A stretch of DNA of 61,893 nt from Eledone cirrhosa (lineage: Eukaryota): the NCBI GenBank assembly GCA_964016885.1, contig CAXHJY010000540.1, positions 1 to 61,893 on the forward strand, written 5' to 3'. Shown one piece after another: positions 37,453 through 37,902 of the stretch (the first letter of the stretch is position 1; every line of letters begins with the position of its first letter). The translations under genes were made by a program, and so were the position numbers. The notes beneath the pieces were generated by a model. It worked only from the letters and a program-made list of their open reading frames with translations, searched no databases and was not told where the DNA came from.

Positions 37453-37795
37453 AACCTCCTAGGAGATAGAATCTTGTGAGGGGGCCAGTTAAACCTACAT
37501 AGGTGTGAACTGTAACAACAACAACAACATGATAGGACTGGTGGGGCCCCTGTCTTTAAAACATCTAAAAACCCTATGAGATTCAGGCCCCTGTCATTAA
37601 AACATCTAAGGTACCTCCTAGGCGATACAACCTTATAGAAGGCCAGCTAAACCTGCAGAGGTGTGGGCTGTAACTAGATACATATATGTTAAATATAATA
37701 GGACTAGAAGACCCCTATCATTAAACACCTGAAGACCTCACCTGAGATACAACCTCATAAAAGACCAGATAAACATACATAGGTGTGAACTGTAA
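37453..37795. repeat. Old, diverged ~120-160 bp tandem triplication
   Basis: cctcctagg.gata...ccag.taaac...aggtgtg..ctgtaa repeated at ~37453, 37613, 37735. Confidence 0.6.
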
Positions 37796-37863
37796 ATTAC
37801 ATCTTTTCTTTGATTATGTCTATTAATAATTGTGTTGTTGTTGTTGTTAATGGTTGCTTTAAT

Positions 37864-37902
37864 TACTAATCATTAACTTTTTTTTTTCTTTTGCAGGTAA
37901 GT
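37864..37902 (+). promoter_or_regulatory. Candidate recursive splice site (3' splice site immediately followed by a 5' splice site)
   Basis: TACTAAT (37864-70), ttttttttttctttt, GCAG|GTAAGT (AG at 37895-96); no AG dinucleotide in 37783-37894. Confidence 0.65.

Follow-up and report, generated by a model that had tools for sequence, protein, structure and literature searches.

Proof of recursive splicing exists for flies and for a few genes of mammals, and its occurrence in other insects and in sea urchin has been proposed from sequence. Cephalopod introns are very large and filled with repeats. The closest described systems are the intronic ratchet points of Drosophila (Ubx, kuz, Bx, luna), which, in the accessible text of the reports, resemble the sites described here in having a tandem AG/GT (the slash marks the splice junction) and a branchpoint at -36 to -21, a short out-of-frame cryptic exon (~50 nt; PMC8605326) with a weaker downstream donor, and several sites per long intron (10.1101/006163; PMC8605326; PMC6110457). 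Mammalian RS-exons also proceed by exon definition and then donor competition, but in the accessible part of the source few of their sites are fully suppressed (nine) and many are expressed, and by this comparison the cephalopod class looks fly-like (PMC8605326). Among 13 species, none of them a mollusc in the accessible part of the report, a combined RP-site sense excess was found in four insects and sea urchin and none in vertebrates, with sense/antisense ratios of 4 to 22 in introns >50 kb (PMC2773006); the class described here has a similar sense excess, tested in one gene (EXT1). No report of recursive splicing in molluscs (including octopus, squid and cephalopod) was found in the largely open-access literature covered. 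Here, we describe a candidate ratchet point in cephalopod DNA and the genome-wide class to which its motif belongs; the class is the main result, and the single site alone adds little.

The window, by which we mean the whole stretch of DNA that was analyzed, is the entire unplaced contig C567 (61,893 bases) of a 3.0-Gb assembly. On its + strand, CAG (37894-96) is directly juxtaposed to GTAAGT (37897-37902). The initial annotation had proposed a recursive-splicing site here from a TACTAAT, a CATTAAC, a 15-nt pyrimidine tract, the CAG/GTAAGT and 112 nt without AG, and inspection of the sequence placed every one of these elements where it had been reported. The features of the site and its surroundings are:

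37449-37797 (no strand): array of degenerate ~105-bp tandem repeats, from a family dispersed in the genome, flanking the site (repeat search)
37783-37894 (+): AG-exclusion zone, 112 nt, preceded by an AG at 37781-82 (sequence)
37864-37870 (+): candidate branchpoint TACTAAT (sequence; use putative), with 37869 as the predicted branch A, at -28 from the junction
37871-37877 (+): second candidate branchpoint CATTAAC (sequence; use putative), A at -21
37878-37892 (+): polypyrimidine tract, 15 nt (sequence)
37894-37902 (+): candidate ratchet point, acceptor plus donor CAG/GTAAGT (sequence, pattern count, acceptor model)
37897-38027 (+): putative cryptic exon, 131 nt (65 nt once the TA repeat is taken out)
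37924-37989 (no strand): (TA)33 microsatellite within the putative cryptic exon (sequence)
38028-38033 (+): downstream donor AAA/GTAAGA, score 2.5, weaker than the ratchet donor (best donor at +20 to +140)

One G (37893) lies between the polypyrimidine tract and CAG. A strong acceptor is followed directly by a consensus donor, and both candidate branch positions fall within the 21-36 nt upstream that are used in flies. The site is non-coding, with stops at 37898, 37902 and 37909, one per frame; all three frames are closed within 15 nt, and so the site is not an internal coding exon. The pattern YYYYYYYYYYNCAGGTRAGT occurs once in the window, in agreement with the earlier claim that no other such juxtaposition occurs in the 62 kb, and a count of at least 1 was reached by 0 of 100 dinucleotide shuffles, a weak control here given that tandem repeats make up 57% of the window. 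A model trained on other loci gives the acceptor a score of 19.8 and the runner-up in the window 11.2. Among 55 other members of the class, the AG-free zone is longer in 7 and equal in 1. T-A skew of the flank is -0.022, which counts against the ratchet-point reading. The site had also been described as an island of unique sequence, which holds in that 37780-37925 has a single match in the assembly, itself, but not throughout, since the AG-free zone begins with ~15 nt of the repeat array.

As had been claimed, the window yielded no credible coding exon, either in the acceptor-model scan or, beyond retrotransposon debris, with a crude exon finder. That debris includes an ORF fragment of a non-LTR retrotransposon at 7717-8430 (- strand), which matches zf-RVT weakly (E 5e-4). 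The ~105-bp repeat family forms short arrays on many chromosomes (129 matches among the 40 scored of 2102 candidates); derivation of the splice motif from this satellite was considered and rejected, as no such motif is present at the repeat in L003-L006. Further downstream, the stretch 38866-39229 is repeat, and within it 38866-39105 is a 240-bp element that recurs many times across the genome at 99-100% identity, often with inverted partial copies nearby; at least 24 copies, including itself, are 100% identical over 240 nt among the matches listed. This element is likely a very young non-autonomous transposon. Elsewhere in the assembly, 39 hemocyanin beta-sandwich matches fall in several gene copies (C1:173.7-173.9 Mb, C26:21.9-22.0 Mb and C27:61-67 kb), the two copies on C26 being in opposite orientation. 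All 39 units are mollusc-type, and one scores 659, 650 and 460 bits against 4yd9_C, 1js8_A and 8tnv_A, which we take to be squid, octopus and gastropod hemocyanin, respectively. These scores give good support to a cephalopod origin; a 19-row tree of EXT1 exon 1 did not place the taxon.

Genome-wide, the base at +5 after TTTYTTTTKCAG/GTAA is G in 23 sites, T in 8, A in 5 and C in 1 (n=37), compared with G1, T2, A6 and C3 after a poly-A tract (n=12). This G excess is significant (Fisher p=0.002) and holds with three repeat copies collapsed. Chance is expected to supply ~1-4.5 G sites among 21-23 tight-pattern sites, placing ~80-95% of tight-pattern sites above chance. With a looser Y10 pattern, of which the first 100 among 174 sites were scored, the counts were G44, A29, T19 and C8, and TAG acceptors gave G15, A12, T7 and C3 in all 37, both counted by hand. 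Ordinary acceptors would be expected to have no preference for a following G at +5, and ordinary donors none for a T over an A tract. The sites make up a non-random class genome-wide. Repeat copies among the members are L044/L072/L075, L023-25 and L062/63, and L024, L025 and L063 were dropped as duplicates. L044, L072 and L075 belong to a dispersed repeat family that has polyY-CAG/GTAAGT at its edge, and could be a seed or a mimic of such sites.

These counts bear on two other readings of the window site. It is quite unlikely to be a motif that arose by chance, or the relic of one, in DNA that is antisense or not transcribed. Such a reading would suit a contig without exons, the repeat-borne origin of some class members and the commonness of T-rich runs, but it is opposed by the small share of tight-pattern sites that chance supplies and, at the window site itself, by the branchpoint at -28, the 112-nt AG-free zone and the single copy in the assembly. 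Alternatively, CAG/GTAAGT is a perfect donor and could serve as a conventional 5' splice site at the T-rich end of a non-coding exon, which the AG at 37781-82 could open to give 114 nt. However, that AG lies in satellite with a purine-rich upstream context, no open frame that ends at the site exceeds 33 nt, and only 1 of 12 sites in the poly-A control has G; we regard this reading as extremely improbable.

Many class members also have a second donor a short distance downstream. With an untrained donor matrix, a score of at least 4 at +20 to +140 was found for 9 of 29 discovery sites (all at +31 to +76) and 0 of 15 controls. The interval +25 to +85 was set beforehand and then tested on a held-out set of 26 further G sites, left from 27 after removal of one duplicate, with 13 controls picked by hand. 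Donors were found in 7/26 and 0/13, respectively, against a background of 2.8-3.2% (p=1.4e-5 by binomial test; p=0.04 by Fisher test against the controls). A model-free count of GTAAG in the discovery and held-out sets together found it in 18/55 sites and 0/28 controls, against a background of 3.9%. At the class level, therefore, there is a short cryptic exon that ends in a donor weaker than that of the junction, and second donors at 25-85 nt resemble the arrangement at fly ratchet points, where cryptic exons measure ~50 nt in the accessible text (PMC8605326). Two other signals did not replicate: a YTRAY branchpoint was found in 20/29 discovery sites vs 4/15 controls and in 14/26 vs 6/13 of the held-out set, and T>A skew in 23/30 discovery sites and 15/26 held-out sites, the discovery contrast in T content being biased by search patterns that differed.

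Splicing into G/TAA could also close the reading frame and create an alternative last exon with polyadenylation downstream, and the window site does have TAA right after its first base (37898) and AATAAA at 39271 and 39492. This is very unlikely. It accounts for GTAA, but not for the excess of G over A, T and C at +5 or for the downstream donors, and the hexamers, 1.4-1.6 kb away, are AT-rich background.

One host gene was identified in ten regions examined around class members. An exon 22 kb downstream of the member at C21:12,596,743 matches EXT1 (E 1.6e-10), and the full-length homolog P0001 maps EXT1 exon 1 and six later exons to C21:12,561,957-12,766,911. Exon 1 (12,766,911-12,765,955) and the next found exon (12,574,506) are both on the minus strand, with a span of 191 kb between them. 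EXT1 residues 316-381 (two coding exons) are absent from the assembly by homolog mapping; these exons probably lie in a 200-N gap at C21:12,577,812-12,578,012, 3 kb before the next exon, and the intron is up to ~188 kb. In this span, YAG/GTRAG preceded by at least 10 pyrimidines in 12 occurs five times in sense and never in antisense; GTRAH controls are 0 vs 0. The five include the index site, and another two carry the same cassette in duplicate (80% across 196 nt). Sites in this intron include C21:12,701,818, 12,644,470, 12,615,718 and 12,596,743. Looser cut-offs gave 5 vs 1 (at least 9 pyrimidines) and 6 vs 2 (at least 8). These five members, distinct from the window site, thus sit within a long intron in sense orientation, and three of them have downstream donors (+46, +54 and +71). 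The segments they delimit (~10-57 kb) overlap the Drosophila range of 2.6-63.6 kb, and the host intron, at ~188-191 kb, exceeds the fly maximum of 133 kb, both as given in the accessible text (10.1101/006163; PMC8605326; PMC6110457).

In 1.0 Mb around 10 index sites, six further sites are on the same strand and none on the opposite, the index site in EXT1 and a site on C3 having been ascertained beforehand; GTAAAT and GTGAAA controls in the same 1.0 Mb are likewise same-strand (2 vs 0). Of eight neighbor pairs within 500 kb, seven agree in strand; the remaining one is a repeat on C18. A search for homeodomains (91 matches) found none within ~0.7 Mb of a known site, and the crude exon finder gave no credible coding exon for stretches of 200 kb on each of C3 and C5 or within +/-25 kb of 7 of 8 sites. 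Three pairs of members are duplicated acceptor/donor cassettes, the two copies in each pair being same-strand and separated by 29-330 kb (L013/L066, L062/L063, and C21:12,644,470 with C21:12,615,718), with similarity centred on the motif. L013 and L066, 52 kb apart on C3, have in common a 155-nt island (89%) spanning the tract, junction and downstream donor, beyond which there is no alignment within 1 kb. This paralogous island speaks indirectly for the class. Ratchet points may spread by such local duplication.

The window site departs from the class in its cryptic exon. No GT occurs at +25 to +85, because the TA repeat occupies that interval, and the site would fail the donor test applied to the class; its donor, of moderate score, is at +131, or at +65 once the TA repeat is taken out. 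The zero-length exon originally proposed calls for refinement, as class members bear cryptic exons that are short and the candidate at this site measures 131 nt. Compared with Drosophila ratchet points, it differs in this length and its microsatellite, and the class differs in that some cassettes are locally duplicated. Among sequencing runs that were not shown to include this organism, a search with a stretch containing TA repeats gave shares of at most 0.20, four runs aligned at 80% had only short matches below 90% to the T-rich part, and four raw RNA runs yielded 0 reads.

A complete exon can in fact be drawn at 37897-38027 with the donor AAA/GTAAGA, and the acceptor could be real with this exon kept in mature RNA as a 5'UTR, lncRNA or poison exon starting with GTAAGT. 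In the accessible text, such expressed RS-exons number fewer than 50 in flies and maybe thousands in mammals (PMC8605326), and regulated neural exons are likewise described as having an extended AG-free zone, CUAAY and a UGC close to the acceptor (PMC8797185). We consider an expressed exon unlikely, as the junction donor is stronger than the downstream donor, an arrangement that favors skipping in flies according to the accessible text (PMC8605326). Moreover, all frames are stopped, a 66-nt TA repeat lies inside, there is no short exon with a good donor, and the EXT1 class members lie between coding exons of a gene whose homolog P0001 aligns with EXT1 proteins of normal length.

The window site is probably a ratchet point of the Drosophila type in a very long + strand intron, with a cryptic exon that has been lengthened by (TA)33. 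The spliceosome would first recognize the short cryptic exon between the acceptor at 37896 and the donor at 38028. The upstream exon would then be joined to CAG, rebuilding an exon/GTAAGT donor that, being stronger than AAA/GTAAGA, would outcompete it for the next segment. The intron would leave in segments, and no sequence of the site would enter the mRNA. The host would be a cephalopod gene with exons outside the contig, and the (TA)33 insertion would have lengthened a cryptic exon of ~65 nt. As the contig has no found exon, we infer the host intron and its strand, along with actual use of the site and lengthening by the TA repeat. The recursive splicing originally proposed is partly supported, at the class level by the +5 G excess, the replicated cryptic donors, the sense bias in EXT1 and the cephalopod-like hemocyanin genes, and at the window site by the top acceptor score in 62 kb, the branchpoint at -28 and the stops in all frames.

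Evidence for the class is good and partly replicated. It is quite probable that cephalopods use fly-type ratchet points and cryptic exons genome-wide for introns of 100-200 kb, such as EXT1 intron 1, and that new points arise via local duplication of ~150-200-nt cassettes. Giant introns in cephalopods are thus likely to be removed piecewise, as in flies; the mechanism is already known, and what is added is its likely occurrence in a phylum for which no report was found. How cephalopod giant introns are spliced becomes a testable question with a list of sites and coordinates, above all the five in one EXT1 intron. If this reading is true, molluscs would share the mechanism known from flies, which would hint at an ancient invertebrate answer to giant introns.
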